Origin: an archaeon | GTDB taxonomy: Archaea; Nanobdellota; Nanobdellia; SCGC-AAA011-G17; GW2011-AR17 | Length of the DNA: 64,000 nucleotides | NCBI GenBank assembly: GCA_043814545.1 | Contig: JBDRJY010000014.1 | Location: forward strand, 7,617-71,616 | Reading direction: 5' to 3' | Shown: in pieces, positions 22,742-47,858 of the stretch | Layout of the letters: every line of letters begins with the position of its first letter | Numbering within the stretch: position 1 is the stretch's first letter | Position numbers and translations under genes: made by a program | Notes under the pieces: generated by a model | Told to the model about the DNA's origin: nothing | Database searches by the model: none | Seen by the model: only the letters and a program-made list of their open reading frames with translations

Positions 22742-24707
22742 CTTTTTGCTTTTATTATTAATCGTCCCAGGGGTTTTTGCTGCTGAGTGTGACTTGGAAG
22801 AGTACGAGTATCAAGGCGAACTGGTTATGCGTTGCAATGTTAATGAAAATATTGAAATCTTAGGCAACGGGATATACCTTTCACCTGACGATACAGAAGT
22901 AAGAACAACTGGTAGTTACCCTTTCACGTTTCGTTTGTCTGAATCTATTCAAACTGAAGAAGGTTTTGAAATAGATGTAACAACTGTTGAAACAGAATGG
23001 GTTAAAGGAAATATTGGCGAAGACGGTATTTTTCAGGGTATATCTTTAGCCGACACTTTTATTTCTGATTATAACCTTCCAGAAAATTTTGAGTTTAGTT
23101 ATTATGTTGTTGATGACATATTTGAAATTGAACACTTTGATACGTTTGAAGGTTATGAGTACGAAGGCCATACGTTAAACATTGCTGAAGATGGGGTTAT
23201 AAAAATTCAAAATGTTGGCGGCGAATGGTTAATTTCTGGCTACAATTTTATGATTGACGACGTTCTTGTTAAAAGTTATAACTCTGCAACTTATGATGGG
23301 GTTAACGACAAATTTCTTTTTGATTTAGGCGGAGATTTTGAATATGCAGGAATAGATTTTTCGTCAGGGCAAGAATTTCAATTATTATCTTATGAAATTG
23401 ATGGTGTAAGCAGGGAAGATTTTCTTTATAATTTTTACCAGGGAGAACTTTTTACGAACGAAAACGATTATTTAATGTTATTAAATGAAGAAATCTCTCA
23501 AACAGAAATTGTACCTTTCATTTTAAACGGTGAAGGTTTAACTTTTGATGTTACATCAGACTCTCTTTTGTTTAACTTTGATGACCGAAACGATTATTTT
23601 AAGGGTGCTTTATCACAAGGTTCATTATTTTTTGAAGATTTAGGGACAGCACATGTTTACGGTAACGCAGAAATCCAAAACGGTCCGTACAAAACTTATT
23701 TTTATGAGGAAGGACGAACAGAAATGGAACTTCTGCAACGACCAGGTTATAATGTTTACAAAACCGGTTACGACATTGTCCCATTAAGTTTAGGTTATGT
23801 TAACGAAGATGGTTATGTTGAAGAAATTTTATACAAAGAATCTACTGCAAGTAGAGGGGTAGACAGTTTAACTGTTTCAACAGCTGAATTTTATGTTGGT
23901 GAAGATTACGTAACAGACGTTTCTGTAGAAACACTTTTAACGGAACCAGAAATTTCGACAGCGTTCTTAACTGATGAATCTTTTGAACCGTTGGAAGGTG
24001 AAGAACCAGAAGTAAGTTGTTTAGGTTTAAGTTTTGACGAATGCCTTTACAATCCGAAAGGCCACGGTTGTTTTTGGTCCGGCGGTTGTACAGAATGTAA
24101 TGTAATAATGTGCGAGATGTATAGTTCTCAGGAAGAATGTGTGAGAGACCCTTGTGGTTTTAACGATATCAGTTCAAAATGTTCGTTTGAAGGTGCGTGT
24201 ATGTCGGTAGATAGGATAGAAGATACTGTTGCAGCATCAGAGATTTTAGCTGTGGCAAATATATACAAGGAAGCTAGTGTCCATTACAGTCAAGGTAATT
24301 GGTTAATGGAAGAGCCAGAAGTGAACGGTTTAGATTGTTCAGGCTTTGCGCAAAAACCTTGGCACGAGTTGGGTGTAGCAATGCCGGCACGTGCGTCAAC
24401 ACAAGCAATGGTAACTCGGGATGATGGTACGACTGAAGTTAAAATGGAAAATTATTTTAACCATATTGAATGTAAAGATTTAAAACCTGCTGACATGCTA
24501 ATTTACCGTCCTAAACCAGGTGTTGAAAGGGATGGTCATGTAGTTTTGGTCAAAGAAAGTTATGGTAACAGTGGCGCAGTGATTATACATTCTAAAGGTG
24601 GAACAGGTGTTACTGAAGATTTTTTGATAGACGTTGAAAATGTTTATTCTCCTTTAGGGTTAGAGTTAAAGGATTGTTGGCGGCATAAGAGCGTTGTTTA
24701 TGAATAA
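22683..24707 (+). CDS. Large secreted Cys-rich protein with C-terminal NlpC/P60 cysteine peptidase domain
   Basis: Signal peptide present; an alternative in-frame TTG start at 22725 gives MRLWFSFLLLLLIVPGVFA|AEC. The C-terminus has NGLDCSGF (catalytic Cys), ...ADMLIYRP...DGHVVLV...AVIIHSKG (His triad region) and a Cys-rich linker. Overlaps the upstream pilin-like gene. Confidence 0.7.
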   Translation: MKMKMSTLARGCTILRLWFSFLLLLLIVPGVFAAECDLEEYEYQGELVMRCNVNENIEILGNGIYLSPDDTEVRTTGSYPFTFRLSESIQTEEGFEIDVTTVETEWVKGNIGEDGIFQGISLADTFISDYNLPENFEFSYYVVDDIFEIEHFDTFEGYEYEGHTLNIAEDGVIKIQNVGGEWLISGYNFMIDDVLVKSYNSATYDGVNDKFLFDLGGDFEYAGIDFSSGQEFQLLSYEIDGVSREDFLYNFYQGELFTNENDYLMLLNEEISQTEIVPFILNGEGLTFDVTSDSLLFNFDDRNDYFKGALSQGSLFFEDLGTAHVYGNAEIQNGPYKTYFYEEGRTEMELLQRPGYNVYKTGYDIVPLSLGYVNEDGYVEEILYKESTASRGVDSLTVSTAEFYVGEDYVTDVSVETLLTEPEISTAFLTDESFEPLEGEEPEVSCLGLSFDECLYNPKGHGCFWSGGCTECNVIMCEMYSSQEECVRDPCGFNDISSKCSFEGACMSVDRIEDTVAASEILAVANIYKEASVHYSQGNWLMEEPEVNGLDCSGFAQKPWHELGVAMPARASTQAMVTRDDGTTEVKMENYFNHIECKDLKPADMLIYRPKPGVERDGHVVLVKESYGNSGAVIIHSKGGTGVTEDFLIDVENVYSPLGLELKDCWRHKSVVYE

Positions 24708-25504: not shown

Positions 25505-26266
25505 TTACTTTTCTCTAATTTTTTTCAAAATAAAATATATTATTAGCAGTTGGATTAAAATTAATATTAAAATAATTAATAACAAATAATTGTATTCTTT
25601 TTGTTCAATAATTTCAAAAATATTTTCTGTTGACGCTTTTCCCCCGTCGTAAATTAATAAAATGTATAAGATATAATGTCCTACATCAATATCTTCAGGC
25701 AATGTAATTATTTTTATAAAATCTAAATTATTTCCTATAATCTTAGATTCTTTTTCTGTTAAAATAACATTATCATTTAAATCTATAATTGAATAATTTA
25801 ATGTTACGTTATTTGTTCCAGGTTCACCAAAGTTAGTTAATGATATGTTGATAAATAATATTTCGCTTAGACTAATTTTATTTTTAATTAGATTTGATTT
25901 TATATCAAATAGTGGTCCTTTAACAATACAGCTTTTATTTTCAATTGGCTTGTGTTTAGTTGTTTCACATTTATTTCTATCATGACAAATTCTTATCTCT
26001 TGATCATTATCACAATTTGCCCAATGTGTACAAGTCCAATTCTCTTGACATAGTAAGACGCGATTTAATATTCCGCTTCCGCGACCTGTAATTTCTTCTT
26101 CGATAGCTTCCCCAATTTCTTCTGTTGGCGCCGCTACAACTGTTAAAGAAACTTCACCAGTTGCCATGGCACTTATTTGATTATAAACAAAAAAACTGTT
26201 CATCGTTGTAATAATTAAGAAAACTATTATAAGAATCAATAAATTTTTATTTTTTAAATTATCCAT
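25505..26266 (-). CDS. Membrane-anchored surface protein (N-terminal TM/signal, Cys-containing ectodomain, C-terminal TM); last gene of the surface operon
   Basis: N-terminal hydrophobic segment and C-terminal YNYLLLIILILILIQLLIIYFILKKIREK. Confidence 0.4.
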   Translation of the reverse strand: MDNLKNKNLLILIIVFLIITTMNSFFVYNQISAMATGEVSLTVVAAPTEEIGEAIEEEITGRGSGILNRVLLCQENWTCTHWANCDNDQEIRICHDRNKCETTKHKPIENKSCIVKGPLFDIKSNLIKNKISLSEILFINISLTNFGEPGTNNVTLNYSIIDLNDNVILTEKESKIIGNNLDFIKIITLPEDIDVGHYILYILLIYDGGKASTENIFEIIEQKEYNYLLLIILILILIQLLIIYFILKKIREK

Positions 26267-26642
26267 TTTTAAAATTTATTTGTAATTTCCCTTCATATTC
26301 TCCATATGCTGCACTTTCAGGCACTGAAATTGAAACTTCGACAATTTTATTTTCATTTGGCATCATAACAAAATTATTTTCGGGTAATACAACCCAATGT
26401 TTTAATTTGCCTTTAGCCTTTAAATTAACATAAGAAATTTGATTAGAATTAGTAATGTTAACCATTCTAGTTCCAATACCTGCAGGTGTAATTGCCCCAA
26501 AATAAAGTGCATCATTATCAACATTAAATCCCGTATAATTTGCAACTGTTAAATACATGCCAATCTCATGATTTGGCGTATCTAAGGTAAGAAAAAAAAC
26601 TAAAGACGCAATTAAAATAACTAATATCAATTTAGCTTTCAT
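26259..26642 (-). CDS. Small secreted protein (signal peptide)
   Basis: Likely start is the MKAKLILVILIASLVFF Met within the tracked ORF 26259-26681. Tightly packed in the operon. Confidence 0.4.
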   Translation of the reverse strand: MKAKLILVILIASLVFFLTLDTPNHEIGMYLTVANYTGFNVDNDALYFGAITPAGIGTRMVNITNSNQISYVNLKAKGKLKHWVVLPENNFVMMPNENKIVEVSISVPESAAYGEYEGKLQINFKNG

Positions 26643-27762
26643 TTTTACGCCTCTTAAGCATTCTGTATACAAAAATTGCAATGATTATAATTAAAACTCC
26701 AATTATTACTAAATTCCAGGAGAAAATATTTCTTTTAACTTGAATTGGAATGTTTGTTTCCATTGATTTATCTGCAAAATATAAAGTTGTGTGTAAAATA
26801 TAATCACCTACATTAACATTAGTCGTATCCCAATAAGCGTTAAGATTTTTTTCTAATAAGGGCTTAAGTTCAATAGATTCAGTTTTTATTATCCCAATTT
26901 CTTGATTATTATCTAAGATTTGCAGTTCAGCATAAACATCTGTAATTTTTTCATTCCATAAACTTTTTAACGAAATTTCAATTTTATTAATTGTATTTAC
27001 TTGAAAGGCTGTAGGAACAATCTTGAGGATTTCAATAAGCAAATCTCCAATTTGGAAACTTTTTTCTGTTTCAATACTTTCTTCATCAAAATAAACTTTA
27101 GCTTTTACGATATATTCACCGGCGCTTAGATCTGTAGGTGTCCATTTTGTCGAAATTTCACCTGATTCTTTTGTATTAATTTTTATACTGTTTGTAGTTA
27201 ATATCGCAACTTCAGTACCATTAGAATCTGTAATTCTGATTGTTGCATCAACATTATTTAAATTTTCAGTACCTAAATTTTGTACGTCAAGTGTTATTTC
27301 TGTTTCTTTATTCAAATTAGTTTTTTCAATAGAAAGTTTAGTAGAAATATATTTTCCAGGGTAAGGGACAAGAATAAGAAACTGTGATTCTACGCCTGTA
27401 ACTGCTCCTACACCGCCTAAGTTTTCTGGAATAGCTTCTACAACACCTATTCTTGTATCATAAATTCCTGGTTTTTCAATGTTTTCAGGCAAATTAACTT
27501 CTACCACAAAACTTTTAATTTCGTTTTCGTTAAGCGTTGTTGAAGTTTCAGAAAGACTCACATATCCAGCTAACTCTCCTTTTGTATACATCTGAACAGT
27601 TGTCGGATTTTCTCTATTAATTATATTGTAAGTATATGTAGAATCTAAGTTTGGTTCAAAATTAACAGTGACGCGGCTGGGACTAATCCCTATAGCTAAT
27701 CCGCTTTTTGTAACTAATAAAATCAAAATTCCGAAGATTATAATTTTAATTATTTTGTTCAT
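26632..27762 (-). CDS. Cell-surface protein with CARDB/DUF11-like beta-sandwich repeats, signal peptide and C-terminal TM anchor with basic tail
   Basis: Signal peptide present. Repeated ...QNLGTENLNNVDATIRITDSNG... NxG-type motifs. C-terminal VIIGVLIIIIAIFVYRMLKRRKNES. Confidence 0.5.
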   Translation of the reverse strand: MNKIIKIIIFGILILLVTKSGLAIGISPSRVTVNFEPNLDSTYTYNIINRENPTTVQMYTKGELAGYVSLSETSTTLNENEIKSFVVEVNLPENIEKPGIYDTRIGVVEAIPENLGGVGAVTGVESQFLILVPYPGKYISTKLSIEKTNLNKETEITLDVQNLGTENLNNVDATIRITDSNGTEVAILTTNSIKINTKESGEISTKWTPTDLSAGEYIVKAKVYFDEESIETEKSFQIGDLLIEILKIVPTAFQVNTINKIEISLKSLWNEKITDVYAELQILDNNQEIGIIKTESIELKPLLEKNLNAYWDTTNVNVGDYILHTTLYFADKSMETNIPIQVKRNIFSWNLVIIGVLIIIIAIFVYRMLKRRKNES

Positions 27763-28352
27763 TATGATTCGTAAGCAGTGAACACTAAGTTTTCACTTTT
27801 TAATCCGGCTGGTTCATCGCCAGGAGGATTAATCAAAAGTTCAATCTGAACTTCGTCATTTGTGTCAACATAATTAAATTCGCAAACAGCTACTATTGGG
27901 TCAGTGCCAGGAACATTTGTCCATGTTATGGTGCTACAAGCAGGATTCCCCGGAACACCTTCACCAGCAACACTAGCAGCAAATTGAAAAGAACTTGTGT
28001 TATCTCCTCCACCAGTCCCGTTAAACAATGGCGTACTGTTTACATCTCTTGCGATTGTAAAATTAACTTCAACACTACCATCATTTCTTATTAAAAATGG
28101 GACAGGATTATTATCAGTAGTATTATCAGTCCCTCCAGCTGTAATATTTCCGAAATTAACATTATTTGTAACAAGAGTTATCTGTGCTACTTGTAACACA
28201 TTAACTTGTGCTATACCAACAGGCATACCTGTAATACTGTTGAAACCAGGTATATTCCAGTTAAAAATGAGAATAAAACCAACTAAAAGAATAATAAATA
28301 ATTCTATTCCAATCCTAATTTTGTTTTGTTTTGGCATTTCATAATTAATCAA
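27762..28352 (-). CDS. Small secreted Thr/Asn-rich protein, paralog family member 1 (conserved C-terminal ...EPAGLKSxxxxFTA motif)
   Basis: N-terminal hydrophobic segment after a charged n-region (..KQNKIRIG|IELFIILLVGF, possibly class III-like). The C-terminus GDEPAGLKSENLVFTAYES is shared with the 28349 and 31598 products. Confidence 0.5.
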   Translation of the reverse strand: MINYEMPKQNKIRIGIELFIILLVGFILIFNWNIPGFNSITGMPVGIAQVNVLQVAQITLVTNNVNFGNITAGGTDNTTDNNPVPFLIRNDGSVEVNFTIARDVNSTPLFNGTGGGDNTSSFQFAASVAGEGVPGNPACSTITWTNVPGTDPIVAVCEFNYVDTNDEVQIELLINPPGDEPAGLKSENLVFTAYES

Positions 28353-28909
28353 GCTTGCGTTGCTGTAAATGTTACAGTTGAACTTTTTAATCCGGCTGGT
28401 TCAGCATTAGGAATTGTGACCCCTATATCAACTTCAACTTGATCTCCAGTATCGGTAAAGGGAAGATCTGCAATTATTAAAATAGGATTACCGCTTGATG
28501 ACATGTTTGTTAAATTTACAATTGATCCAGTAGGACAACTAATTTCTCCACTACCGCAGGCGAATTGATAAGAGCTATTTGGATTTGGAGCTGTTGTAAA
28601 TATATCAGTTGCTTGAATTGTGACATTTACATTTACAGTCCCATCATTTTGTAATTGAAACGGCGCCGGACTATCATTAAGAGTATCATTATTGACATTG
28701 TTATCCATTGGTCCAAAATCGATAGAAGCGAGTGGTAACGAAATATAAGTTGTTGCAGTTACAGTAACATTTGCTACACCTGTAGGTGTAGAGGTTTGCG
28801 CTCCTGTAATAAGAGAAATACTTTCTTTATTTGATATAAGAACACAACTTCCAATAGTTAGCAGGAGCATGATAAAAATAAAAAATTTGAGTTTTAAGTT
28901 AATTTTCAT
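28349..28909 (-). CDS. Small secreted Thr/Asn-rich protein, paralog family member 2
   Basis: Signal peptide present. The C-terminus NAEPAGLKSSTVTFTATQA is shared. A 4-nt overlap with the downstream gene indicates translational coupling. Confidence 0.5.
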   Translation of the reverse strand: MKINLKLKFFIFIMLLLTIGSCVLISNKESISLITGAQTSTPTGVANVTVTATTYISLPLASIDFGPMDNNVNNDTLNDSPAPFQLQNDGTVNVNVTIQATDIFTTAPNPNSSYQFACGSGEISCPTGSIVNLTNMSSSGNPILIIADLPFTDTGDQVEVDIGVTIPNAEPAGLKSSTVTFTATQA

Positions 28910-29153
28910 TTAATACCTCCTCAAATTTGATGGCGTCATTTTTTGTTTCAAAGTTATTTGATGTTTGAGGATTAACATATAATTGTACCTTGCCAGAATT
29001 TGTAGTATCTGAAGACCTAACATTTGTTTGATTAGAAACCAACCCCAAAATTAAAATAATTACTAAAAATAAGATTAGAAGAACTAAAACTTTTTTATTT
29101 ATTTGCATCCCCCTTTTACCCCCTTTATTTTTAAGATTAAATATAGCTTTCAC
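28899..29153 (-). CDS. Small membrane-anchored protein (about 70-84 aa)
   Basis: MQINKKVLVLLILFLVIILILGLV is an N-terminal TM followed by a short polar tail. Confidence 0.35.
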   Translation of the reverse strand: MKAIFNLKNKGGKRGMQINKKVLVLLILFLVIILILGLVSNQTNVRSSDTTNSGKVQLYVNPQTSNNFETKNDAIKFEEVLNEN

Positions 29154-29201
29154 GCATTTAAAGGTATAGATTAATTTTCAAACTGAATCATCATTAAGAA
29201 G

Positions 29202-29690
29202 TTAAAGTTTTAAACTTATTAGTTCAAAAAAGGAATCAAATATAGTCTTTCTTTTCCAAACAATTTTATTTTTTCCATCATAATATTGGCTGGTAGTAAT
29301 GCTATTATTAGGAATATTTAATATATATTTAACAGTTTGACTTTTGCCTGGTTCAAGATAAAATACAATTTTGTTCTTATAACTTAATTCATCTATATTA
29401 TAAGTTAGCCACTCTGCCATAGGCCTATCACTTGTAATTATAATTTTCATTGGATATGGATAAAGGTTATTAAAATGCATATTCCGATAAGCACTTAACG
29501 AATTTATAGGGATGTTTCCAAAATGCAGTTTATTTTCATCAAGATTTAAACTAATATGGTCATCTTCTACAATATTAACATCCATGGGGTAATATATTGT
29601 TTCTTCAATTAGAACTTTGAAGTTTAAAATTAACGCAGTACCCAAACCAATTATAAAAATTATTACGAAAATTAAAATGATTTTTTTCAT
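29202..29690 (-). CDS. N-terminally membrane-anchored protein (162 aa)
   Basis: MKKIILIFVIIFIIGLGTALIL followed by a soluble domain. Sits in the operon. Confidence 0.4.
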   Translation of the reverse strand: MKKIILIFVIIFIIGLGTALILNFKVLIEETIYYPMDVNIVEDDHISLNLDENKLHFGNIPINSLSAYRNMHFNNLYPYPMKIIITSDRPMAEWLTYNIDELSYKNKIVFYLEPGKSQTVKYILNIPNNSITTSQYYDGKNKIVWKRKTIFDSFFELISLKL

Positions 29691-29694
29691 GATT

Positions 29695-30846
29695 TCACCT
29701 TTTCTTTCTTAGTAGGACAATAAGGAGGATTAGTGTTATTAAAAGTAGCCCGCTTGATGCAATCAAAGCTACCACTATCCAATCTTGGTTTTCAAAAATA
29801 AGATTATTTCCTTGATATTCCTCAACCTTGACTTCAAATTCACTTACTGTTTCTATCTCATCATAAGACAATTTTATTTTCAAAGTATAATTGCCAGGCA
29901 TTATATCATTTAAATCTAAACTTAAAGACAAATCTTTTTCACTAATAGCATTAAAAATAAATGAGTTAAGATTTGTTTTTGTTATCAAAGAAGATTCATC
30001 ATATAACCCAACTTCAATTTCAACATCTAAATCTTCAATCCAATAATTAAATGTTTTTAACGTAATAGTATTGATAACTTGACTATTTAATTTTTTTGGT
30101 ACGAGATCTAAAATTTCAATTTCTTTTTTTGCAATAATAAAATTTGCAATGTTTGAGGAACTTTCTTCCTTATCGTATTCTGTATATAAAACTAAATTAT
30201 AAAGGCCCAGATCCATAGCAGTTGTATCGGTTGACACTAATACGGATTCACTTGAATCAGGAAATAAATAATTCAAAGATTCAATTTCAACTTTTTTATT
30301 AAAACCTTCATCATTTGTTATTTGAAAATAACCGTCTACTGTGTTAATAACTTCTGTACCTATGTTACTGATTGTAGCTTTTAGTTCTGCAAAATCTCCT
30401 ACATTTTCAATTACCACTTCATCTATTTCTATTTTCAAAAATTTATCCGGATAAGGTGCATTAGTTGTAATAGGTATTTTCAGCGCTACAGTTGCGCCGA
30501 TATCTCCACTTGATCCAAATGGGACTAGATAAAATTTAATTAAAGCAATCTGCACGTCCCCAAATTCATTAAGTTCAGGTATAGTTAAACTGAAATCTAC
30601 ATCTTCACTTTCATAAGCTCCAACAAGAATTTTATCTGATGGAAAATTAAAGTATTCTTCATAATCGCTTTCAAGGGTAATTTCAATTATACTTTCTACT
30701 GCTAATTCATTTGTAACTGTTAGCGTAAACTCTTCTATTTCTCCTGGAGCATATCCTATGTTTATTTTTGCAGGATTAATTAACAGTGCATTTACAGAAA
30801 TAGATAAAATGGCTAAAAATAATATTATTATAATAATTTTTTTCAT
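29695..30846 (-). CDS. Cell-surface protein with CARDB/DUF11-like repeats, signal peptide and C-terminal TM anchor with basic tail
   Basis: Signal peptide present. ISNIGTEVINTVDGYFQITNDEG NxG motifs. C-terminal IVVALIASSGLLLITLILLIVLLRKKR. Confidence 0.5.
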   Translation of the reverse strand: MKKIIIIILFLAILSISVNALLINPAKINIGYAPGEIEEFTLTVTNELAVESIIEITLESDYEEYFNFPSDKILVGAYESEDVDFSLTIPELNEFGDVQIALIKFYLVPFGSSGDIGATVALKIPITTNAPYPDKFLKIEIDEVVIENVGDFAELKATISNIGTEVINTVDGYFQITNDEGFNKKVEIESLNYLFPDSSESVLVSTDTTAMDLGLYNLVLYTEYDKEESSSNIANFIIAKKEIEILDLVPKKLNSQVINTITLKTFNYWIEDLDVEIEVGLYDESSLITKTNLNSFIFNAISEKDLSLSLDLNDIMPGNYTLKIKLSYDEIETVSEFEVKVEEYQGNNLIFENQDWIVVALIASSGLLLITLILLIVLLRKKR

Positions 30847-30868
30847 CTTTTACCTCTTTTATAATAAA

Positions 30869-31426
30869 TTATGTTAAAGTACGTTGCAGATTATCATATC
30901 TATTAAATTTCACTCTTGAAATTTTGTTTTTAAGATTATCAATCATAAAATGAAATAACTCCGAAGGGTTATTTTTGATTAAACTAGTGTGGGAAAAAGT
31001 AAATAGTTCTTGAGTTTCGATAAAATTATGAAGATTTTGTTTTTGTTTTTCAGAATGAAAAAATTTGTCTAATTCTGGCAAATTTTTAAAACCATAGAGC
31101 AATATATGACTTGAACTACCTTTTGGAATGCGGTAAATATTGATAATTTGTGGAACTTGTAATAATTTTTTCTCAATTTCAACTTGTCCTTCCTTTTTTC
31201 CTTCATTTGTTAATTTAGTTATTGCTAAAGCAAAAGTTTCGATTCCTAATTTTGCATAATTTAAATTTAAAGTGTATGAATCTATAATTATACATTCTAA
31301 TTTTCTTCTAATTTTACCAACAGCGACACTTGAAATAGCTAATTTTGATGCAATTTCACTATCAGAAATTCTCGAATTTTCAAGTAATAATTTTAAAGTT
31401 CTTTTTTCATTTTTAGTTAACTTCAT
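30869..31426 (-). CDS. Transcriptional regulator with Lrp/AsnC-type N-terminal HTH; first gene of the surface-protein operon
   Basis: MKLTKNEKRTLKLLLENSRISDSEIASKLAISSVAVGKIRRKLE matches the AsnC-type HTH. The C-terminal domain of about 130 aa is unassigned. Confidence 0.55.
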   Translation of the reverse strand: MKLTKNEKRTLKLLLENSRISDSEIASKLAISSVAVGKIRRKLECIIIDSYTLNLNYAKLGIETFALAITKLTNEGKKEGQVEIEKKLLQVPQIINIYRIPKGSSSHILLYGFKNLPELDKFFHSEKQKQNLHNFIETQELFTFSHTSLIKNNPSELFHFMIDNLKNKISRVKFNRYDNLQRTLT

Positions 31427-31597
31427 TGTGCGAGGCCTTTAACTTATTAATCAAATAGGCTATTATAGTTTATAAATCTAACGTTTATTTTTTTAACTTT
31501 TCTTTAACCATTTTGTTTTACATTTAAGCCACGACTTTAAATCTATGGAAGATTGTATCAGTTTTTAAATTAATTTAAGTAAAGGGGGTAAAAAAAC

Positions 31598-32209
31598 TTG
31601 AAAAAAAAATTTGTATTGGTCTCTTTATTATTGGTGACCTTTTTGTGTGCTGTTACAAATGTAATGGCAGCAACAGATGACGCAACTATAACATTAACTC
31701 AGGCAGGTTCAGCTGGAATCACCTTACCAGTTAGTGTTTTAGGATTTGGTAGTGGGTATTATAACGCAAGTTGTACCGTGGATTATTCAGAACTGGATTC
31801 TTTTAGTAAGAATAGTGCATGTTGGATAAATACTACGGATTTCTTGGCTACGGATACTTACCATGTTATTGAAAATAGTGGTAGTTCAGTTTTGAATATT
31901 ACAGCAGATACAGATAAGTTTAACGCTGAAAATTTATTCTGTAGTGGTGTAACTTGTCCTGGTACAACGTCTGCAGAAATTGCGATACAATCGCAGCAGA
32001 ACGAAACAGGATCCTGTAACACGGCTTTAACGACTCCATACGAAAAAATACTGGATGATACAAAAGAGTATCCTACCGGCCTTTGTGATGAATTAAATTT
32101 CCAAGACAGTAAAGATACAATAAGGGTTTACTACAGGTTTAGAGTACCAATAGATGCGCATGCAGGTGCGAAAACATTGACTGTGACCTACGAAGGTATT
32201 GCCGTATAA
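31598..32209 (+). CDS. Small secreted Thr-rich protein, paralog family member 3 (TTG start)
   Basis: A GGGGGT SD lies 7 nt before the TTG start. Signal peptide MKKKFVLVSLLLVTFLCAVTNVMA. The C-terminus ...HAGAKTLTVTYEGIAV is related to the 27762 and 28349 C-termini. Confidence 0.5.
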   Translation: MKKKFVLVSLLLVTFLCAVTNVMAATDDATITLTQAGSAGITLPVSVLGFGSGYYNASCTVDYSELDSFSKNSACWINTTDFLATDTYHVIENSGSSVLNITADTDKFNAENLFCSGVTCPGTTSAEIAIQSQQNETGSCNTALTTPYEKILDDTKEYPTGLCDELNFQDSKDTIRVYYRFRVPIDAHAGAKTLTVTYEGIAV

Positions 32210-39162: not shown

Positions 39163-40200
39163 ATGCGTTACATAATATTATTACTTTTATTGATGCCAGG
39201 AGTTACAGCTAGTTTAACAATCAATGAAATCATGCCTAACCCGATAGGTGCAGACAATGCACCACAACCAAGAGGGGAATGGGTCGAATTATATAATCCA
39301 ACATCTGAAAAAATATATTTAGAAGATTATTATTTAACAGATTTAATAGAATATCATAAGTTAGAGATTTTAGAGGAATACATAGAACCTTACCAATATC
39401 TAACTATTTATCGAGATGAAGACGGCGATTTTGCATTAAACAATAATGGTGATGAAGTTAAACTATTTCATAATAAAACCCTAATAGACAAAATGGAATA
39501 TAAAAAATCTGAACAGTCATTATCTATAGCAAAAACCGAACAAGGTTGGATGATACAAACACCTTCACTAAACAAAGAAAATTATCCTTATGATTACACA
39601 CCGCAATGCGATTGGGAATTAGAGATTTGGTTAAACGAAACAATAACCTTAGACCCTTATTTTAAAGTTAAAATAAACAACGTTTATGGCGGTAAGAACA
39701 ACCTTACATTAACGCGTACAATTTTAAATCAAAAAGAAATAGAACGTTTATACGAAAATTTAACATTTTCTATCATTACAAAAACATCTTACACTTACAA
39801 ACCTCAACTTAAACCTGGCCCTCATAGAATACAAGCAGCAATAGAATCTTTAAATTGTAATGATACAAATATGGACAATAATAAAGTAGAAACCTTGGTA
39901 TATATCCCTGAAACAGTAAATTCATTAGAAATAGTAAATTCTTTAAATACTACAGGCATAAATTATTTAAACCCTACGGGAAACATTGTTTATGAGTCAA
40001 AGGGTAGGAAAGCAAAAACTTATGCAGTTTACGCCTTTTGCGCTATAATAATAGTATTAATTGTATATTGGGGAATTAAAGATGAAATCAAAAAAAATCA
40101 TAGCACGAATCATAGTCGAAGTTCTAGGTGCACCAAAAGAACACGTCGAAAAAACAATGCAACAGATAATAGAAAATCTAAAGCAAGACAAAGATCTTAA
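39163..40200 (+). CDS. Secreted lamin-tail-domain (LTD) protein with C-terminal TM anchor
   Basis: Signal peptide present. LTINEIMPNPIGADNAPQPRGEWVELYNPTSEKIYLEDYYLTD is the LTD signature. There is a C-terminal TM VYAFCAIIIVLIVYWGI. The last roughly 40 codons are low-complexity basic and overlap the next gene, so the true stop may lie earlier, or there is a frameshift or sequencing issue. Confidence 0.5.
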   Translation: MRYIILLLLLMPGVTASLTINEIMPNPIGADNAPQPRGEWVELYNPTSEKIYLEDYYLTDLIEYHKLEILEEYIEPYQYLTIYRDEDGDFALNNNGDEVKLFHNKTLIDKMEYKKSEQSLSIAKTEQGWMIQTPSLNKENYPYDYTPQCDWELEIWLNETITLDPYFKVKINNVYGGKNNLTLTRTILNQKEIERLYENLTFSIITKTSYTYKPQLKPGPHRIQAAIESLNCNDTNMDNNKVETLVYIPETVNSLEIVNSLNTTGINYLNPTGNIVYESKGRKAKTYAVYAFCAIIIVLIVYWGIKDEIKKNHSTNHSRSSRCTKRTRRKNNATDNRKSKARQRS

Positions 40201-40503: not shown

Positions 40504-42144
40504 TTATTGTGAATCTAGGAAACTGGAAGCTTCGTTGTTACTGTGTACAGGCATTATGCAATTATTATCTTCACACTGGCCATAATCTGTTTCGCCATTT
40601 TCTTTAATTTCAATTATATTATTAACGTTACTATTTTTTTCTAGGATTGTTAAATCAATTTCAAGAGGCGTTACATCCATTCCTTTCAAAGTATAAAGTT
40701 GAGGTTTACCGTCGACCATATGTATAAAAGTTTGTTGTTCAATTACTTCATGTATTGAATCAGCAAGATCTATTATGGCACCTTCAGTAACTATTATGTC
40801 AACAGAATCATCTTCATCTAATTCTACATAAGTTTCACCTATCAAAGTTTCAACAATAGGTTCATTTTCAATGGGTTCAATTTCTTCTTTAACCCAGACA
40901 ACTAACATCGTTGTAACACCTTCACCTTCAACAACATAATTATTATTATCATTTAAACAATGGTTAACAAAGTTAGTTGTAAAATCTTTAGTTTTATCAG
41001 AACAAGAACTAAGACGTAAATCTTTATGGTTAGCATTGTTAATTATTTCTAAACCGGTTTCAATATTAAGTTCAAAAATAGTCACAGTAGCTTCCGGCCC
41101 AATATAATATTCTATGTCTGAAATAATTCTTAAATAAGAATCGGCTGGAGTATCAATAAAAAGCTGTTCGCCATTAGATCTTGTCCATACAAAATCCCCA
41201 CTAAAATATAAACCTGTAGCATATTTTTGGATAAGCATTTGACCACCATAGGGTTCAATAGTATAACTTCCTTTAGATATGCCATTCTCATCATATTGTA
41301 ATATTTTAAATTCTCTATTCTCAGTGTCAACATAAACATAACCTTCAGCGTATCGTATCATACCACCTTCAGGAATTTCATAATATTCATCAATGAAAAA
41401 GTAAGTTCCACCGTCTGAACCAGCATAAATTGTAGCTTCAATAAGGTTACCTTCTTTATCATATTTAACATAACTACCTTCACCAACATTAAGGTAAGGT
41501 GGCCTAATACCTTCAATCTCAATGTTAGCTTCAGCATCAGCAGTAAATGTAACAAACTCATCATCAGATTGTAAATTTAGGTTTTCGCTGGTTACCAAAT
41601 TAGCGCCTTCAATGTCTAAAAAATATTCTAAGTCAAATTCTCCTTCGCCTAAATTAAGCTCGGCATTAATAATATTACCTTCATCATTAAAATCAACATC
41701 ACCCTCAGCTTTATTTTCTTGCATAAGAGTTTGGATTTGTTTTGCTTGCCCCCAAAGTTCGATTATTTGATCAATGTCAGGATTATTTTCCATGGCTTTT
41801 CTCAGCATAGCTTCTTTTGCGGCATCAACAGGATTTGCAACATATTGGTAAGCTTGAAAAATTGTATTGTATACTTCTTCAAGGTCGGGATTTTTGTCAA
41901 GAACTTGCGTTTGAAACTGTGATTGAAGTTCGCCCATGGCAGCAGCTTTTGTATTTAAAACAAAACCAACTACTTTAGCAGCTTTAGGGTCAAGTTGCGA
42001 CAGCTGTGATGTTCCTAAAGAGATTAAATAGTTTCCAGCACCTTGCGATTTGACAGACATTGCGCTTGATAACGGGTCAAAAGTTGCAATGCTAAATGCA
42101 CTAACTAGGAACAATGCCAACATTATTGCTAAAACTTTTTTCAT
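40504..42144 (-). CDS. Large secreted protein (546 aa, signal peptide); partner of pilin-like paralog B
   Basis: MKKVLAIMLALFLVSAFSIA signal peptide. The start abuts the stop of the 42145-42897 gene. No catalytic motif recognised. Confidence 0.5.
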   Translation of the reverse strand: MKKVLAIMLALFLVSAFSIATFDPLSSAMSVKSQGAGNYLISLGTSQLSQLDPKAAKVVGFVLNTKAAAMGELQSQFQTQVLDKNPDLEEVYNTIFQAYQYVANPVDAAKEAMLRKAMENNPDIDQIIELWGQAKQIQTLMQENKAEGDVDFNDEGNIINAELNLGEGEFDLEYFLDIEGANLVTSENLNLQSDDEFVTFTADAEANIEIEGIRPPYLNVGEGSYVKYDKEGNLIEATIYAGSDGGTYFFIDEYYEIPEGGMIRYAEGYVYVDTENREFKILQYDENGISKGSYTIEPYGGQMLIQKYATGLYFSGDFVWTRSNGEQLFIDTPADSYLRIISDIEYYIGPEATVTIFELNIETGLEIINNANHKDLRLSSCSDKTKDFTTNFVNHCLNDNNNYVVEGEGVTTMLVVWVKEEIEPIENEPIVETLIGETYVELDEDDSVDIIVTEGAIIDLADSIHEVIEQQTFIHMVDGKPQLYTLKGMDVTPLEIDLTILEKNSNVNNIIEIKENGETDYGQCEDNNCIMPVHSNNEASSFLDSQ

Positions 42145-42897
42145 TTATGCATACCTGCTTGCAAACACGAACTGGAAATCTTCGTCGTAAACTTGCGAAT
42201 TTTTATCTGTTATCATAAACAATGTGCCTTCATCTAAATTTTCAAAATTTATTTCTAAATTATAATCTAGTGTAATATCAGTAATACAGCTAACGCAAAG
42301 TTTGTTATCATATATTTGATTTTCTATGATAAAGTTTAATGCTTCATGTAATTGAAACAAATAAATATTTTGATTTAAACTAAAATCATTTATTCTATAT
42401 TCAATAGAATTATATTTAACAGATATTGGCCAATAAATATCCCACGTTACCAAATCTTCAATAACAACAATAGGTTCAATATTGCCATAACTTAAATCAA
42501 AATTTTCATAATCTTTAACACAATTTTGGTAATTAGCTTTCATGTAAGACGCTAAATCATTTTCCCAGACTGTAAGATCAACAACATTATTTTGTCCTTT
42601 ATCATAAAGGTAAGGTACAGCATAAATATCATATTCTAAAAATGATAATGGTGTTTCGTAAAGATAACCTCCAGTTAAACCTAAATTATATACAGCATCA
42701 TTGCTTAAATCATATAAACAAGAATAAATTTGGTCTTTCAGTTCTTGAACTTCGTTAGGTAAAACTGATTCTTCGACGAACCCGGACTTTTGAAACATAT
42801 CAACCAATTCACTACGAAAAAAGAAACCTAAAATTATTATAATAAATAAAATTAGACCTAGAATAATTAAAATTGTAACTTGACCTTTTTTTGGCAT
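42145..42897 (-). CDS. Type IV pilin-like protein with archaeal class III signal peptide (paralog of 22037-22741)
   Basis: MPKKGQ|VTILIILGLILFIIIIL. Full-length similarity to the 22037 product, e.g. LGLTGGYLYE versus IGENGGLYNE, and a shared C-terminal CxSCI motif. Confidence 0.55.
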   Translation of the reverse strand: MPKKGQVTILIILGLILFIIIILGFFFRSELVDMFQKSGFVEESVLPNEVQELKDQIYSCLYDLSNDAVYNLGLTGGYLYETPLSFLEYDIYAVPYLYDKGQNNVVDLTVWENDLASYMKANYQNCVKDYENFDLSYGNIEPIVVIEDLVTWDIYWPISVKYNSIEYRINDFSLNQNIYLFQLHEALNFIIENQIYDNKLCVSCITDITLDYNLEINFENLDEGTLFMITDKNSQVYDEDFQFVFASRYA

Positions 42898-42917: not shown

Positions 42918-45323
42918 TTATAAAAACTTTTCTTCCTCTTCTTCCTCAGACATTTCACCCACTTCTTTAACTTGTGAAGCATTTTTCTCTTCAAGCCTTT
43001 CTCGTGCAACATTTAACAACAAACGTTTTTCGACGTTAGCGACGATATGTTTGATTTTTTTGACAGCGTCAGGGTTAGCTGAAATGCTATCAATACCTTT
43101 CTTAACTAAGAACTCAGCCATTTCAGGTCTACTACCAGCTTGTCCGCAAATACTAGTTTCAACATTATATTCTCTGCAAACTTTGATTACGTGCGCAATT
43201 TGTCTAAGAACAGCAGGATGCATTTCGTCATAAAGTTTTTGAATCTTTTCATTATTTCTATCAACGGCTAAAGTAAATTGTGTAAGATCGTTAGTACCAA
43301 ATGAAACAAAGTCTATACCTTCTTTACAAATTTCTTCGATGATTTGTACAGCTGCCGGTGTTTCAACCATAACACCAAACTCAATATTTTCCATAGGTTC
43401 AAGACCAACTTCTCTCAAAATTTTTTTAGCTTCAATAATTTGTGAAACGTGTGTTACTAAGGGTATCATAACACCTAAGTTGGTAAAACCAGCATCATGT
43501 ATTTTTTTAATAGCCTCATATTCGGCCTTTAACAATTCAGGCTGATCCAAACTTCTTCTAATACTACGCCAACCCATCATAGGATTTTCTTCGTGTGGTT
43601 CTTCATCCCCGCCTTCTAAACCACGAAACTCATCAGTAGGCGCGTCTAATGTTCTATACCAAATAGGCTTATCTTTGAACGCTTTACAAAAAATTAATAA
43701 GTTCTCGACTAGATTTTCAACAAATTCATCTTTTTGACCGTGTTGTATCATGTAAAAAGGATGAACTTTACTTTTCAAGTTAATGAACTCTCCTCTAAGT
43801 AAACCAATACCATCTGCACCAGTTTCAGCAGCTTTTTCTGCAAAGTCGGGCAGGTCCATGACCACTTTAACTTTTGTAATTGTATCAACTTCTGGTAAGT
43901 TTTCATAAAACTCTTCTTTAGGTTGTTCAATTTTTATTAAACCTTCATAAATTTTACCAGTTGTACCGTCAACAGTAATTTCTTGACCTTCTTGTAATTT
44001 TTGCGTGGCATTACTGGTTCCAACAACAGAAGGTATACCCATTTCTCTGGATACAATTGCTGCGTGACACGTTGCGCCTCCAGAATCAGTTACGATTGCT
44101 GCAGCTTTAACCATTGCTGCAACATAATCAGGGTTAGTCATTTCAGCAACAAGGACATCGCCTTTCTCAATTTTGTTTAAATCTTCAGGTCCGTGCAAAA
44201 TCTTAACTTTACCCGAACCAATACCTGGACTAGCCCCAATACCTGAAAGAATTTCTTTTTTATCTGTTGTAACAGGTTGCTTTTTTTTAGTTTCTTCAAC
44301 TTTCTTTTTCAAAGTTGTGATTGGTCTAGATTGTACAATGTAAATATTAGCACCGTCAATTGCAAATTCTAAATCCTGCGGATTTTGATAATGTGCTTCA
44401 ATTTTTTTAGCTAACTTTGCAAGCTTAACAATTTCAAACTCGTTCAAAACTTGCGACTGTGCTTTAGCACTATCTATGTTTTGTTTAACAGTTTTACCAA
44501 AGTTAAGATCTAAGGTATACATCCAATCTTGTTTTTGCACATTAATATTTTTTATCTCAAAATGGTCTTTACTAACAATATATTTGTCAGGGTTTATTGC
44601 GCCAGAAACAACAGCTTCTCCAAGACCCCAACCAGCTTCAATAAGAATTTCATTTTCATTAAAATTTAAAGGATTAACTGAAAATATTACACCTGACTTT
44701 TCAGAGTTAACCATTTTTTGTACAATTACCGAGATGAAAACTTTGTTATGTGCAAAATTATTTTTTACACGGTAAAAGATTGCACGCGCAGTGAACAAGG
44801 AAGCCCAACATTTTTTAACGGCTGTTAACAAAGAATTGTTTCCTTTAATATTAAGATAAGTTGCTTGTTGTCCTGCAAATGAAGCAGTTGGAAGATCTTC
44901 TGCAGTGGCAGAACTTCTCACAGCAACAAAAGGTAAATCTCTTCCAGTTTTAATTATATCTAATGTATTTTTGTTTAATGGGTTAGAAAAAATGTCTGCA
45001 TCAATGTTAAGATTATCATAAGCTTCACTGATATCCTGCTTAATTTCGTCAGGTATGTCAGTGTTCATAAAAATCTCATTAATTTTTTTTGATGTATCCT
45101 GTAAAGTTTGATTATCTTCAACATCTAAAGAATCTAGTAATGGATAAATCTCTTCATCAATACCTGTAGATTCAATAAAAAACTTATACGCTTGTGCTGT
45201 CACTGCAAATCCTGGTGGTATAGGCATTTGTGCGTTATACATTTCGGCTAACGAAGCACCCTTACCTCCAGCAATATTTAGACTATCTTTAGAAAGTTCT
45301 TTGAACCATGCAACATTTGTCAT
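42918..45323 (-). CDS. ppsA: Phosphoenolpyruvate synthase (pyruvate, water dikinase)
   Basis: N-terminal ATP-grasp MTNVAWFKELSKDSLNIAGGKGASLAEM. Phospho-His domain GGATCHAAIVSREMGIPSVVG. C-terminal PEP-utilising TIM barrel. 801 aa. Confidence 0.9.
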   Translation of the reverse strand: MTNVAWFKELSKDSLNIAGGKGASLAEMYNAQMPIPPGFAVTAQAYKFFIESTGIDEEIYPLLDSLDVEDNQTLQDTSKKINEIFMNTDIPDEIKQDISEAYDNLNIDADIFSNPLNKNTLDIIKTGRDLPFVAVRSSATAEDLPTASFAGQQATYLNIKGNNSLLTAVKKCWASLFTARAIFYRVKNNFAHNKVFISVIVQKMVNSEKSGVIFSVNPLNFNENEILIEAGWGLGEAVVSGAINPDKYIVSKDHFEIKNINVQKQDWMYTLDLNFGKTVKQNIDSAKAQSQVLNEFEIVKLAKLAKKIEAHYQNPQDLEFAIDGANIYIVQSRPITTLKKKVEETKKKQPVTTDKKEILSGIGASPGIGSGKVKILHGPEDLNKIEKGDVLVAEMTNPDYVAAMVKAAAIVTDSGGATCHAAIVSREMGIPSVVGTSNATQKLQEGQEITVDGTTGKIYEGLIKIEQPKEEFYENLPEVDTITKVKVVMDLPDFAEKAAETGADGIGLLRGEFINLKSKVHPFYMIQHGQKDEFVENLVENLLIFCKAFKDKPIWYRTLDAPTDEFRGLEGGDEEPHEENPMMGWRSIRRSLDQPELLKAEYEAIKKIHDAGFTNLGVMIPLVTHVSQIIEAKKILREVGLEPMENIEFGVMVETPAAVQIIEEICKEGIDFVSFGTNDLTQFTLAVDRNNEKIQKLYDEMHPAVLRQIAHVIKVCREYNVETSICGQAGSRPEMAEFLVKKGIDSISANPDAVKKIKHIVANVEKRLLLNVARERLEEKNASQVKEVGEMSEEEEEEKFL

Positions 45324-45436: not shown

Positions 45437-46687
45437 ATGAAAAAAGAGGTTAAACTAATTTTATTATTTGTGTTAATTCTAACACTATTATTTGCTATAG
45501 ACGTAACAGCATCATTAAATGTTGCTTTATCTGATCAAGGTTCAGGTGTCAAAGAAAAAGTTACTGGCAACACATTATTGTTGGCAGATTTAAATGTAAG
45601 TATATGGGATAACTTAACAGAAGGTAACTTACTTTATAATGAAGTTTTTTCAAACGCAATTGTCAACGGTTCCTGGAACGTGATGCTTGGCGAAAATTCA
45701 TCTAACCCTTTAACATTAGAATACGGCAATTTATACTACAAAGATTATATGATTGGTTCTGAAGACGCAGACTTTACTGATATTAACGGCACTGTTGTTG
45801 AACGTATGTTCTTTCGCGCCCCATTAGGAGATATTAATTCAACTGTTATTGCGCCAAATTCAATTAACGAAACACATATTGATAATAATGCAAATTTAAC
45901 TTTAGGTGGTAAAATCACTTTTGCTTTTGGCGAAATAATTGATAATTTGATTAATGGATATATACAAATAACTGGCGGTTTAAATGTTACAAAAGATGTT
46001 CATGTGGGTGAAAACCTTACTGTTCACGGTGGAAAAATAGAATTAGATAAAACTGCAAATGAGATAACAACTTTATCAAGTAACTCAAACATTACTTTTA
46101 GTTTTAATCAATTAACGACTGTTGTAGGAAGATTTAGTAACCAATTATTTGAAGTGTTTGGTAATTCTGAAATGTATAACTTATCATTAAAAGATAAACT
46201 TACCCTCAGTGCTAAAGATGCCCTTCTGGACATTTCTCCAGTATCCGGTGGAAATTTAACTTTATTATTCCAAGACAAAGCAACGTTTAAATTTACAGAT
46301 TCGGGACAATTTGGCATTAATTTAGAAAACCCTGTTGACGTTTTACATATGAGTGGTAATAATGTTTCGTTCCAAGGTATAGCACCTGCTGCTCATTTAA
46401 GGATAAATTTGGCAGGTGGAAGTGGTACAAATTTAGTAATATTCAATACTCGTATTGGCGCTATTGATTATCCGCATTTAACTTTTGATCCAATAACTCA
46501 ATTTACAGGTATTGGTACTAACACGCCTGATGCTAACTTAACAGTGAACGGAGCCATTCGTCTTGTAGAACAAACCAGTATGTCAGTAGTATGTGATGGA
46601 ACAAAGAAAGGTTTAATATTTTTTAACGACACCGACAACAATTTTATGGGATGTAATGGTGGTGTATGGGTGCAGTTAAACAACTAG
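45437..46687 (+). CDS. Secreted fibre-like protein with very many N-x-S/T sequons and a tail-fibre-like C-terminal motif
   Basis: Signal peptide present. More than 15 N-glycosylation sequons (NVSI, NLTE, NGSW, NSSN, NGTV, NSTV, NETH, NLTL, NVTK, NLTV, NITF and others). The C-terminus GAIRLVEQTS...GLIFFNDTDNNFMGCNGGVWVQL resembles the G-x-IRFN...W..L ending of phage/cell-surface fibre proteins. Confidence 0.45.
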   Translation: MKKEVKLILLFVLILTLLFAIDVTASLNVALSDQGSGVKEKVTGNTLLLADLNVSIWDNLTEGNLLYNEVFSNAIVNGSWNVMLGENSSNPLTLEYGNLYYKDYMIGSEDADFTDINGTVVERMFFRAPLGDINSTVIAPNSINETHIDNNANLTLGGKITFAFGEIIDNLINGYIQITGGLNVTKDVHVGENLTVHGGKIELDKTANEITTLSSNSNITFSFNQLTTVVGRFSNQLFEVFGNSEMYNLSLKDKLTLSAKDALLDISPVSGGNLTLLFQDKATFKFTDSGQFGINLENPVDVLHMSGNNVSFQGIAPAAHLRINLAGGSGTNLVIFNTRIGAIDYPHLTFDPITQFTGIGTNTPDANLTVNGAIRLVEQTSMSVVCDGTKKGLIFFNDTDNNFMGCNGGVWVQLNN

Positions 46688-46709: not shown

Positions 46710-47858
46710 ATGTCACGGAAGGTCATCATTTTAACATTGGCAACTTTCCTACTAGTGATACCTTTTGTATTATCTTTTAACGCAACGACAACAACTTACA
46801 CTATAGATGCTTTTCATATGGGCGTTGCAACAAGCAACATTTCTGATACTTTAACTTACGAATTTTACAGTACAACTACATCAATGCAACCTAGCACTAA
46901 TGGTACAAGTACTTCTTATTCGTTTTTTGTTTCATGGTTTCCTAAAGCAACATGGTATGATTCAATCCCTCCTAACATAACTTTGCACAGCCCGGCAAAT
47001 AATGCGATTGTATATGTTCCGACGATTACAGTTAATTTTTCAGCTATAGACGAATTATCTACAATAAGTAATTGTACATTATTCATTGACAACCAAACCG
47101 CGTTCATTAACACAACCATCCCTGAAAATCGTAGCATGCAAATTACTGGCAATATTACTGAAGGTCAACACACTTGGCACATAGGATGCTACGATCATCT
47201 GGGCTTACCACAAAATACTTCGTCCAGGTACATAACTGCAGATTTTTCTGTTGCTGAAGAAATAACTGGTGGTGGCGCTGGCCCTAGTGGTGGTGGAGTT
47301 GTTCCTGTTGATGAAGAAGAGGAAGAAGTGCCTGAAGAACAAGCCCCAGAAGCTGAGGAGGAAGAAGCTGTTGTTGACGAGGAAGGTGGAATTGAAGATT
47401 TACCTGACGCAGGTTTTGACGAGGGAGAAGATCCTGTATTTGGAGAAGATTACGAAGATATTTTGAAAGAAATTCTTGGACCAGAAGATATACAAGATAT
47501 CTTAGATATTATTGAATTAGAACCTGATGTAGAAGTTTCGGTTGAAGACGGAGTTATTACTACTCAGATAAGTGTTACAGGTCTTTATAGTTTGGAGATA
47601 GTTAAAGAAAAAGGTAAATTACCTAGATTTGATATCGACTTTTCAGGGCCAGGTTATAGTCCAGTTAAATTAGATAAAGATTTTACAAAAGAGATTTTTA
47701 AATATTTTGTTAACAATTATAAAAGATGGGGAGATGTTTGGGACTGGTTATTATTATTACTAATCATTATTGCTTCAATATTATTAACTTACGATCATTT
47801 AGAAGCTGATAGAAAAGAAAAAATTTGGCAACGTTACCATGATTGGCGTCAAAGGTAA
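46710..47858 (+). CDS. Secreted protein with N-glycosylation sequons, an acidic low-complexity segment and C-terminal TM anchor
   Basis: Signal peptide present. EEEEEVPEEQAPEAEEEEAVVDEEGGIEDLPDAGFDEGED is the acidic segment. C-terminal WLLLLLIIIASILLTY. Confidence 0.45.
   Translation: MSRKVIILTLATFLLVIPFVLSFNATTTTYTIDAFHMGVATSNISDTLTYEFYSTTTSMQPSTNGTSTSYSFFVSWFPKATWYDSIPPNITLHSPANNAIVYVPTITVNFSAIDELSTISNCTLFIDNQTAFINTTIPENRSMQITGNITEGQHTWHIGCYDHLGLPQNTSSRYITADFSVAEEITGGGAGPSGGGVVPVDEEEEEVPEEQAPEAEEEEAVVDEEGGIEDLPDAGFDEGEDPVFGEDYEDILKEILGPEDIQDILDIIELEPDVEVSVEDGVITTQISVTGLYSLEIVKEKGKLPRFDIDFSGPGYSPVKLDKDFTKEIFKYFVNNYKRWGDVWDWLLLLLIIIASILLTYDHLEADRKEKIWQRYHDWRQR

Follow-up and report, generated by a model that had tools for sequence, protein, structure and literature searches.

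A small protein with a class III-like signal and a variable secreted partner form a recurrent two-gene cassette in DPANN archaea

Why would a small archaeon carry two copies of a gene for a short protein with a hydrophobic N terminus, each followed directly by the gene for a large secreted protein of a different kind? This question is raised by a 64,000-nt stretch of DNA (hereafter the window) from an archaeon of the GW2011-AR17 lineage (Nanobdellota; assembly GCA_043814545.1, contig JBDRJY010000014.1, positions 7,617-71,616). An earlier note, made from the sequence of the window, described there a pilin-like gene with a 546-aa secreted partner (cassette B; small B and large B) as the second copy of a similarly built pair (cassette A; small A and large A). 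We propose that cassette B represents a two-gene unit for surface display that is widespread in DPANN archaea, in which a small anchor or adaptor holds a secreted partner. We hold this reading tentatively, with slightly less than even confidence; explanations of the pair as a maturation factor with its client, as a surface-layer (S-layer)-like assembly or as a toxin cassette are less well supported.

Both open reading frames (ORFs) of cassette B lie where they had been placed in the earlier note, and the NCBI annotation carries products identical to them (P0001 and P0003; 100% identity). A chance ORF was rejected as an explanation in view of the identical annotated protein and the thousands of homologs. 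The description of small B as a second copy of the small A gene was likewise confirmed: BLASTP aligned the two homologs over about 250 aa with 25% identity (E 2e-17), and a family hidden Markov model (HMM) applied to the six-frame translation of the window found just these two (E 1e-84 and 2e-59; next match 0.19). The large proteins had been said to share no obvious similarity, and every comparison agreed. BLASTP between them was not significant (best E 0.01 over 90 aa), an iterated HMM started from large B missed large A, and HHalign, with large A entered as a single sequence, gave a probability below 1%. The genes of each pair are tightly linked. The TAA stop codon of small B directly abuts the ATG of large B (TAAATG), and large A overlaps small A by 47-59 nt.

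The small proteins belong to a large family, which single-protein word-indexed searches, giving two matches each, did not reveal; a profile search was required to expose it. An exhaustive profile search of 1.84 billion cluster representatives retrieved 5373 representatives at E<=1e-3 and 2545 at E<=1e-10, nearly all of them 230-270 aa long and matching the profile from end to end. The named sources are all DPANN: Woesearchaeota, Pacearchaeota, Nanoarchaeota/Nanoarchaeia and one Diapherotrites. A long-form branch of 625-780 aa keeps the N-terminal signal and family positions 1-199 and adds an extension of about 430 aa; its partners are about 1200 aa long and contain Ig-like domains. The family also turns up in records that bear the title 'Patescibacteria group bacterium' or 'uncultured Methanosarcinales archaeon' (loci L023, on JBNMFJ010000015.1, L027, L031, L040, L042, L048, L049, L065, L072 and L075). 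These titles may reflect mis-binning or mislabelling and not a true spread beyond DPANN.

The N terminus is the best conserved part of the small-protein family. The logo of 149 representatives reads M-x-K(82%)-[RK](99%)-[G75/A13/S11]-Q(92%)-[VIL]-T/S(88%; T75%)-x-F(83%)-[IV]-I-x-[GA]. The family motif has a leader of only 3-5 residues, exactly 22 uncharged residues after the G and then R/K, with Q at +1 in 150 of 151 sequences. In small B the corresponding segment is MPKKG-QVTILIILGLILFIIIILGFFF-R. Judged by its sequence, this N terminus looks like a class III (prepilin-type) signal: it agrees with the FlaFind-type motif that defines such signals, and Gln at +1 is found in a group of pilin substrates of archaea. 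Small A and small B were the only ORFs of the window to match a class III pattern (short basic leader, [KR][GA], about 20 hydrophobic residues), which we modelled on the FlaFind motif and ran in place of the FlaFind program itself. Were the N terminus just a membrane anchor, conservation at these positions would not be expected. Small B is predicted to be cleaved after G5.

The term 'pilin-like' used in the earlier note fits the signal-like N terminus; the small proteins match no curated pilin family, and the ectodomain is not recognisably pilin in fold. Small B had no Pfam match at E<=0.1, small A matched only the PMBR repeat, a non-pilin family, and that below threshold, and the small proteins gave chance-level non-pilin matches and nothing else against NCBIfam at E<=1. 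The family had no PHROG match and no PDB-sequence match, the profile search of PDB sequences returning no pilin. It appears to be without a Pfam or NCBIfam model.

The earlier note had also proposed a survey for further cassettes. We assembled 85 loci, 79 from a profile scan of 185,579 species genomes with a 9-sequence alignment and six from exact-protein look-ups, which together hold 101 small-family genes. A large ORF on the same strand follows 93 of them, its start positioned at -71 to +168 nt relative to the stop codon, most commonly with a 4-nt overlap, and most of the eight genes without a following partner lie at contig ends. (The L023 gene mentioned above is among the few without a same-strand partner.) At least nine loci have the tandem order small-large-small-large. 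Besides the pair itself, no neighbour is conserved around the 85 loci. Sec-like N termini were found in 79 of 91 partners, compared with 103 of 437 other flanking ORFs (a background of 24%), and a C-terminal transmembrane or hydrophobic segment was found in one of the 91. Complete partners are mostly 400-1300 aa long. BLAST clustering of 78 partners produced classes of 28, 15, 8 and 5 members and many singletons; large B falls into the class of 28 (class 0) and large A is a singleton. HHalign detected no relation between the classes beyond the signal peptides. The notion of a conserved module combined with a variable large partner, first drawn from two cassettes, hence extends to at least four non-homologous partner classes.

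Recognisable domains in the partners are sparse and extracellular, namely Ig-like (Big_13, fn3, Glucodextran_B), Peptidase_M64, PG_binding_1, MopE and NlpC/P60-like domains. PilY1-type proteins are marked by a beta-propeller, DUF2341 or vWA (features also cited in PMC4858521), and the partners had no match to any Pfam family recognised as PilY1-type. A large, Sec-secreted, anchorless protein encoded beside a small membrane-anchored one could alternatively form a two-component surface layer, with the large protein as the canopy and the small protein as the membrane stalk, like SlaA/SlaB of Sulfolobales. The conserved and vertically inherited pair and the presence of beta-rich domains would suit this arrangement. 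However, single genomes carry several paralogous cassettes with non-homologous partners, some partners contain hydrolase-like domains (M64, NlpC/P60-like), and no lattice-forming or S-layer family was matched. Moreover, the anchor is N-terminal and class III-like instead of a C-terminal transmembrane segment with a coiled-coil stalk. We consider a surface layer of this kind very unlikely.

The variability of the partners had been interpreted in the earlier note in the manner of polymorphic effector cassettes. According to that model, the large protein would be a delivered effector whose toxic ends can be exchanged, and the small protein would serve in delivery or immunity. A conserved small module beside very diverse large partners is compatible with the model, and so are class 0, in which the N-proximal domain is conserved and the C-terminal parts are variable, and the NlpC/P60-like hydrolase domain at the end of large A. 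The model predicts exchange, and the mode of inheritance speaks against it. In 58 of 78 cases, the closest homolog of a small protein from a different locus comes with the same class of partner, compared with 13.6 expected by permutation (maximum 27 in 2000 runs); small subfamilies and partner classes thus co-diverge and do not recombine. Cassette B lies within a 15-gene syntenic block in GCA_054040335.1 (L001), a genome about 75% identical. Identity to the L001 counterparts is 69-78% for the cytoplasmic proteins and 43-58% for the other secreted ones. Small B reaches 50% and large B 38%; no gene of the block evolves as fast as large B, and cassette B as a whole outpaces its surroundings. Because the small subfamilies track the partner class and cassette B is fully syntenic in L001, we conclude that the cassettes are passed on as co-diverging units, neither shuffled nor mobile.

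No sign of mobility was seen, and neither toxin or immunity families nor PHROG matches were found. There is also no orphan C-terminal module array or immunity gene downstream of cassette B, where the next gene, convergent and on the opposite strand, encodes 146 aa and has an L001 ortholog annotated as MJ0538-family. These results leave the toxin cassette hardly credible, and the comparison with polymorphic effectors is not supported. A phage or plasmid origin was rejected as well, given the lack of PHROG matches and the housekeeping, syntenic context.

How could such a unit work? In the surface-display reading, the small protein would be made with a class III signal, and after its insertion into the membrane an A24 signal peptidase would probably cut it behind Gly5. 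A hydrophobic helix of 22 residues would retain the protein in the membrane or in a type IV-filament-like core, with a disulfide-stabilised alpha/beta domain facing outward. The large protein, translated from the same message by way of abutting or overlapping start and stop codons, would be exported by Sec. Lacking an anchor, it would stay at the surface through binding of its conserved N-terminal part to the small protein. The variable distal part would carry an adhesive or hydrolytic function, possibly in contact with a host, and the paralogous cassettes of one genome, such as A and B, would present different partners.

The outward-facing domain of the small protein is suggested by its cysteines. 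C60 and C126 are invariant, and C201 and C204 form a C-x-x-C motif; all four are present in 135 of 151 members, and C201 and C204 are jointly absent in 14. This pattern implies putative disulfides C60-C126 and C201-C204, which would make the domain extracytoplasmic. The AlphaFold2 (AF2) model of small B, computed from a 14-sequence alignment, has a predicted local distance difference test score (pLDDT) of 87.5 and a predicted TM-score (pTM) of 0.76. It consists of a helix at residues 4-36, a low-confidence linker at 38-43 and a compact domain of about 200 aa, for which structure comparison gave no significant relative and no recognisable pilin fold.

The same cysteines would fit a different role, in which the small protein is a membrane-anchored maturation factor specific to its partner, for instance a folding chaperone or thiol-disulfide helper, with an uncleaved signal anchor, and the partner is released or attached in another way. 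Tight translational coupling and the fact that each subfamily has its own partner class are expected of such a factor. Its C-x-x-C stands at a helix start, a position that this motif also takes in thiol-disulfide oxidoreductases; cysteines are plentiful in some partner classes (with 'CCEKT' N termini), and the globular domain is not pilin-like. However, the 14 members that lost the CxxC pair otherwise keep the family signature, so the pair is not an essential active site; for the same reason we rejected a thioredoxin-like enzyme. No thioredoxin-like fold was detected, large B contains just four cysteines, and a simple anchor leaves the fixed-position conservation of G-Q-x-T-x-F unexplained. 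A maturation factor is, in our view, unlikely.

Which part of the large protein could be held by the small one? Both large proteins have Sec-type N termini, as read from their translations (MKKVLAIMLALFLVSAFSIA in large B and LLLLLIVPGVFA in large A). In large B, residues ~24-145, behind the signal peptide, are the part best conserved with the ortholog P0004, and we regard them as a candidate docking region. The all-beta domain that follows is common to about 27 partners in other DPANN genomes; the AF2 model of large B, based on a 2-sequence alignment, is usable for this domain alone (residues ~160-360). Domain searches on large B found no Pfam, NCBIfam, PHROG or PDB match. Large A ends in a possible hydrolase domain. 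Its match to PF00877 (E 7e-4, 20 bits) is below the 23-bit cut-off, and the translation holds the motifs DCSGF ... GHVVLV ... IIHS, which are plausible Cys/His motifs; a PDB sequence search gave no match. Two metagenome scans found no relatives of cassette A.

Several observations weigh against surface display by a prepilin-like protein. The modelled N-terminal helix of small B stops at residue 36 and does not resemble the long helix packed on a sheet that is typical of pilins. No functional domain at all was identified for large B, and common ancestry of the organisms may account for part of the co-segregation between small subfamilies and partner classes. In addition, the Pfam-scanned ORFs of the 64-kb window (150 aa or longer) include no filament ATPase, platform protein or A24 peptidase. 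Around the 85 loci no ATPase was found within 5 kb, and none of the 629 flanking ORFs has a secretion-ATPase-like Walker motif. The lack of machinery near the cassettes is not decisive, because many archaeal pilin genes sit outside machinery loci (PMC4858521). Class III signals also occur on non-pilin proteins, such as the bindosome binding proteins (bioRxiv 10.64898/2026.04.22.720090).

A hint of class III processing comes from two other loci. In L025, from a Nanoarchaeia genome, a Peptidase_A24 gene (PF01478 E 1e-11, with Arc_PepC) lies 6 nt downstream of a small-large cassette, and in L060 a cassette of that class has a homolog of the peptidase gene one gene away. This adjacency is only a hint because L025 and L060 are related loci. 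The tie of the cassettes to type IV filament machinery is weak. The window itself encodes a presenilin/signal-peptide-peptidase-like membrane protease (PF06550, E 6e-8), which we place with the prepilin peptidases in the GxGD group, though in another family, and which does not count as evidence for class III processing.

A more specific version of the surface-display reading would make the small proteins a DPANN-specific class of adaptor pilins, each of which would place its one dedicated client, a secreted adhesin or a cell-wall hydrolase, at the tip of a type IV filament or of a short pseudopilus. We think this version rather unlikely. If it were true, the cassette set of each genome would be a toolkit to recognise, attach to and breach host cells. 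The coordinates of the features discussed are collected in Table 1.

Table 1. Positions of the cassette genes, their parts and other features mentioned in the text (window numbering, unless another locus is named; aa, amino acids)
Feature	Locus	Positions	Strand	Length, residues or basis
Small B	Window	42145-42897	-	250 aa; ORF, identical NCBI protein
Large B, secreted, without membrane anchor	Window	40504-42144	-	546 aa; ORF, identical NCBI protein
Small A	Window	22037-22741	+	234 aa; paralog of small B
Large A	Window	22683-24707	+	674 aa counted from first start codon
Class III (prepilin-type) signal-like N terminus of small B	Window	42817-42897	-	Residues 1-27; pattern scan, family logo
Predicted extracytoplasmic alpha/beta domain of small B	Window	42148-42756	-	Residues ~48-250; three helix + beta-hairpin units; AF2 secondary structure
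Sec-type signal peptide of large B, MKKVLAIMLALFLVSAFSIAT	Window	42082-42144	-	Residues 1-21; read from sequence
Helical N-terminal region of mature large B	Window	41710-42075	-	Residues ~24-145; alignment with ortholog P0004; AF2 helices of low confidence
All-beta domain of large B	Window	41065-41667	-	Residues ~160-360; defines partner class 0
NlpC/P60-like C-terminal domain of large A	Window	24324-24551	+	Residues 548-623; Pfam PF00877, motifs
Candidate TATA box, TTTTTATAA	Window	42918-42926	-	Centred ~25 nt upstream of the small-B ATG; overlaps the ppsA stop codon
Long-form cassette, example	L027	4998-6884 and 6881-10666
Long-form small-family example	L046	4998-6998
Long-form small-family example	L055	4992-6950
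Peptidase_A24 gene	L025	7849-8697	-	PF01478
Peptidase_A24 homolog	L060	8225-9079	-
Presenilin/signal-peptide-peptidase-like protease	Window	13494-14339	+	PF06550
Secreted/membrane protein flanking cassette B	Window	39163-40200	+
Secreted/membrane protein flanking cassette B	Window	45437-46687	+
Secreted/membrane protein flanking cassette B	Window	46710-47858	+
ORF upstream of the RelA/SpoT homolog	Window	14647-16578	+	643 aa
Long RelA/SpoT homolog	Window	16625-18556	+	HD_4 + RelA_SpoT + TGS + ACT_4
Second surface-protein cluster	Window	26259-32209
WxLIP_HBD/CARDB-domain protein of the cluster	Window	26632-27762
WxLIP_HBD/CARDB-domain protein of the cluster	Window	29695-30846
Secreted protein of the cluster	Window	27762-28352		~190-200 aa
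Secreted protein of the cluster	Window	28349-28909		~190-200 aa
Secreted protein of the cluster	Window	31598-32209		~190-200 aa

The window has a G+C content of about 32% and the gene content of a small archaeon, including archaeal-type aminoacyl-tRNA synthetases, FtsZ, phosphoenolpyruvate (PEP) synthase, deoxyhypusine synthase and TrmB. Cassette B starts 20 nt downstream of the PEP synthase gene (ppsA), on the same strand, and the candidate TATA box in Table 1 may serve a leaderless small-B transcript. Three further secreted or membrane proteins flank the cassette: one has a Lamin Tail Domain with a C-terminal membrane segment, and two are rich in sequons (N-x-T/S), one of which also has a long acidic low-complexity stretch. 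Synteny of the three is kept in L001, yet they are 43-58% identical.

The second surface-protein cluster of the window contains two WxLIP_HBD/CARDB-domain proteins with C-terminal membrane segments and three secreted proteins with similar end motifs, two with '...EPAGLKS..V.FTA' and the third with 'AGAKTLTVTYEG'. Elsewhere in the window lies the gene for a full-length RelA/SpoT homolog of the long type, and upstream of it an ORF of equal length with no family match; such (p)ppGpp enzymes are, to our knowledge, rarely seen in archaea.

Little is known of the ways in which DPANN archaea attach to their hosts and exploit them, and their pilins have been noted as unidentifiable by homology (PMC4858521, PMC6393860). 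In Saccharibacteria, which are analogous ultrasmall bacteria, type IV pili drive episymbiosis (PMC9894109, PMC11623550). A family of thousands of members with a prepilin-type signal-like N terminus and an obligate secreted partner offers concrete candidates for an apparatus of attachment or host-wall attack, and it could be defined as a new Pfam/NCBIfam model. The searched literature contained no description of the small family, of its ectodomain fold or of an obligate pairing with partners from unrelated classes. Class III signal proteins and pairs of a pilin with an adhesin are already known kinds, and the cassettes can be compared with several of them.

The genes for SlaA and SlaB of Sulfolobales are adjacent and encode a large anchorless secreted protein and its small membrane-anchored holder. 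The cassettes share this arrangement of an adjacent pair, and they differ in that their anchor is N-terminal and not C-terminal and in that one genome has many paralogous pairs, with unrelated partners and hydrolase-like domains. The binding proteins of the Sulfolobales 'bindosome' (bioRxiv 10.64898/2026.04.22.720090) resemble the small proteins in combining a class III signal, a hydrophobic helix and a non-pilin domain and in being encoded away from filament loci. Unlike in the bindosome, the domain of the small cassette protein is not a solute-binding fold and no ABC transporters adjoin; the constant neighbour is a large secreted protein. Among the closest known systems we also count the tip pseudopilin GspK of type II secretion and the minor pilin PilX (PDB 3ci0_K, 2opd_A), and PilY1/PilC with the minor pilins of type IVa pili, together with the predicted archaeal PilY-like adhesins (PMC4858521; bioRxiv 10.64898/2026.04.22.720090). 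The cassettes depart from the PilY1/PilC systems in having a single small protein in place of four to five minor pilins, no co-encoded filament ATPase or platform protein, partners without a PilY1-type Pfam match and a small-protein fold that is not recognisably pilin. In PilY1/PilC, as in the cassettes, a protein with a prepilin-type signal is encoded beside a large, Sec-exported, anchorless protein, which in PilY1/PilC is presented at the surface by way of the former, and the partners of the cassettes likewise diverge fast and include adhesin-like domains.

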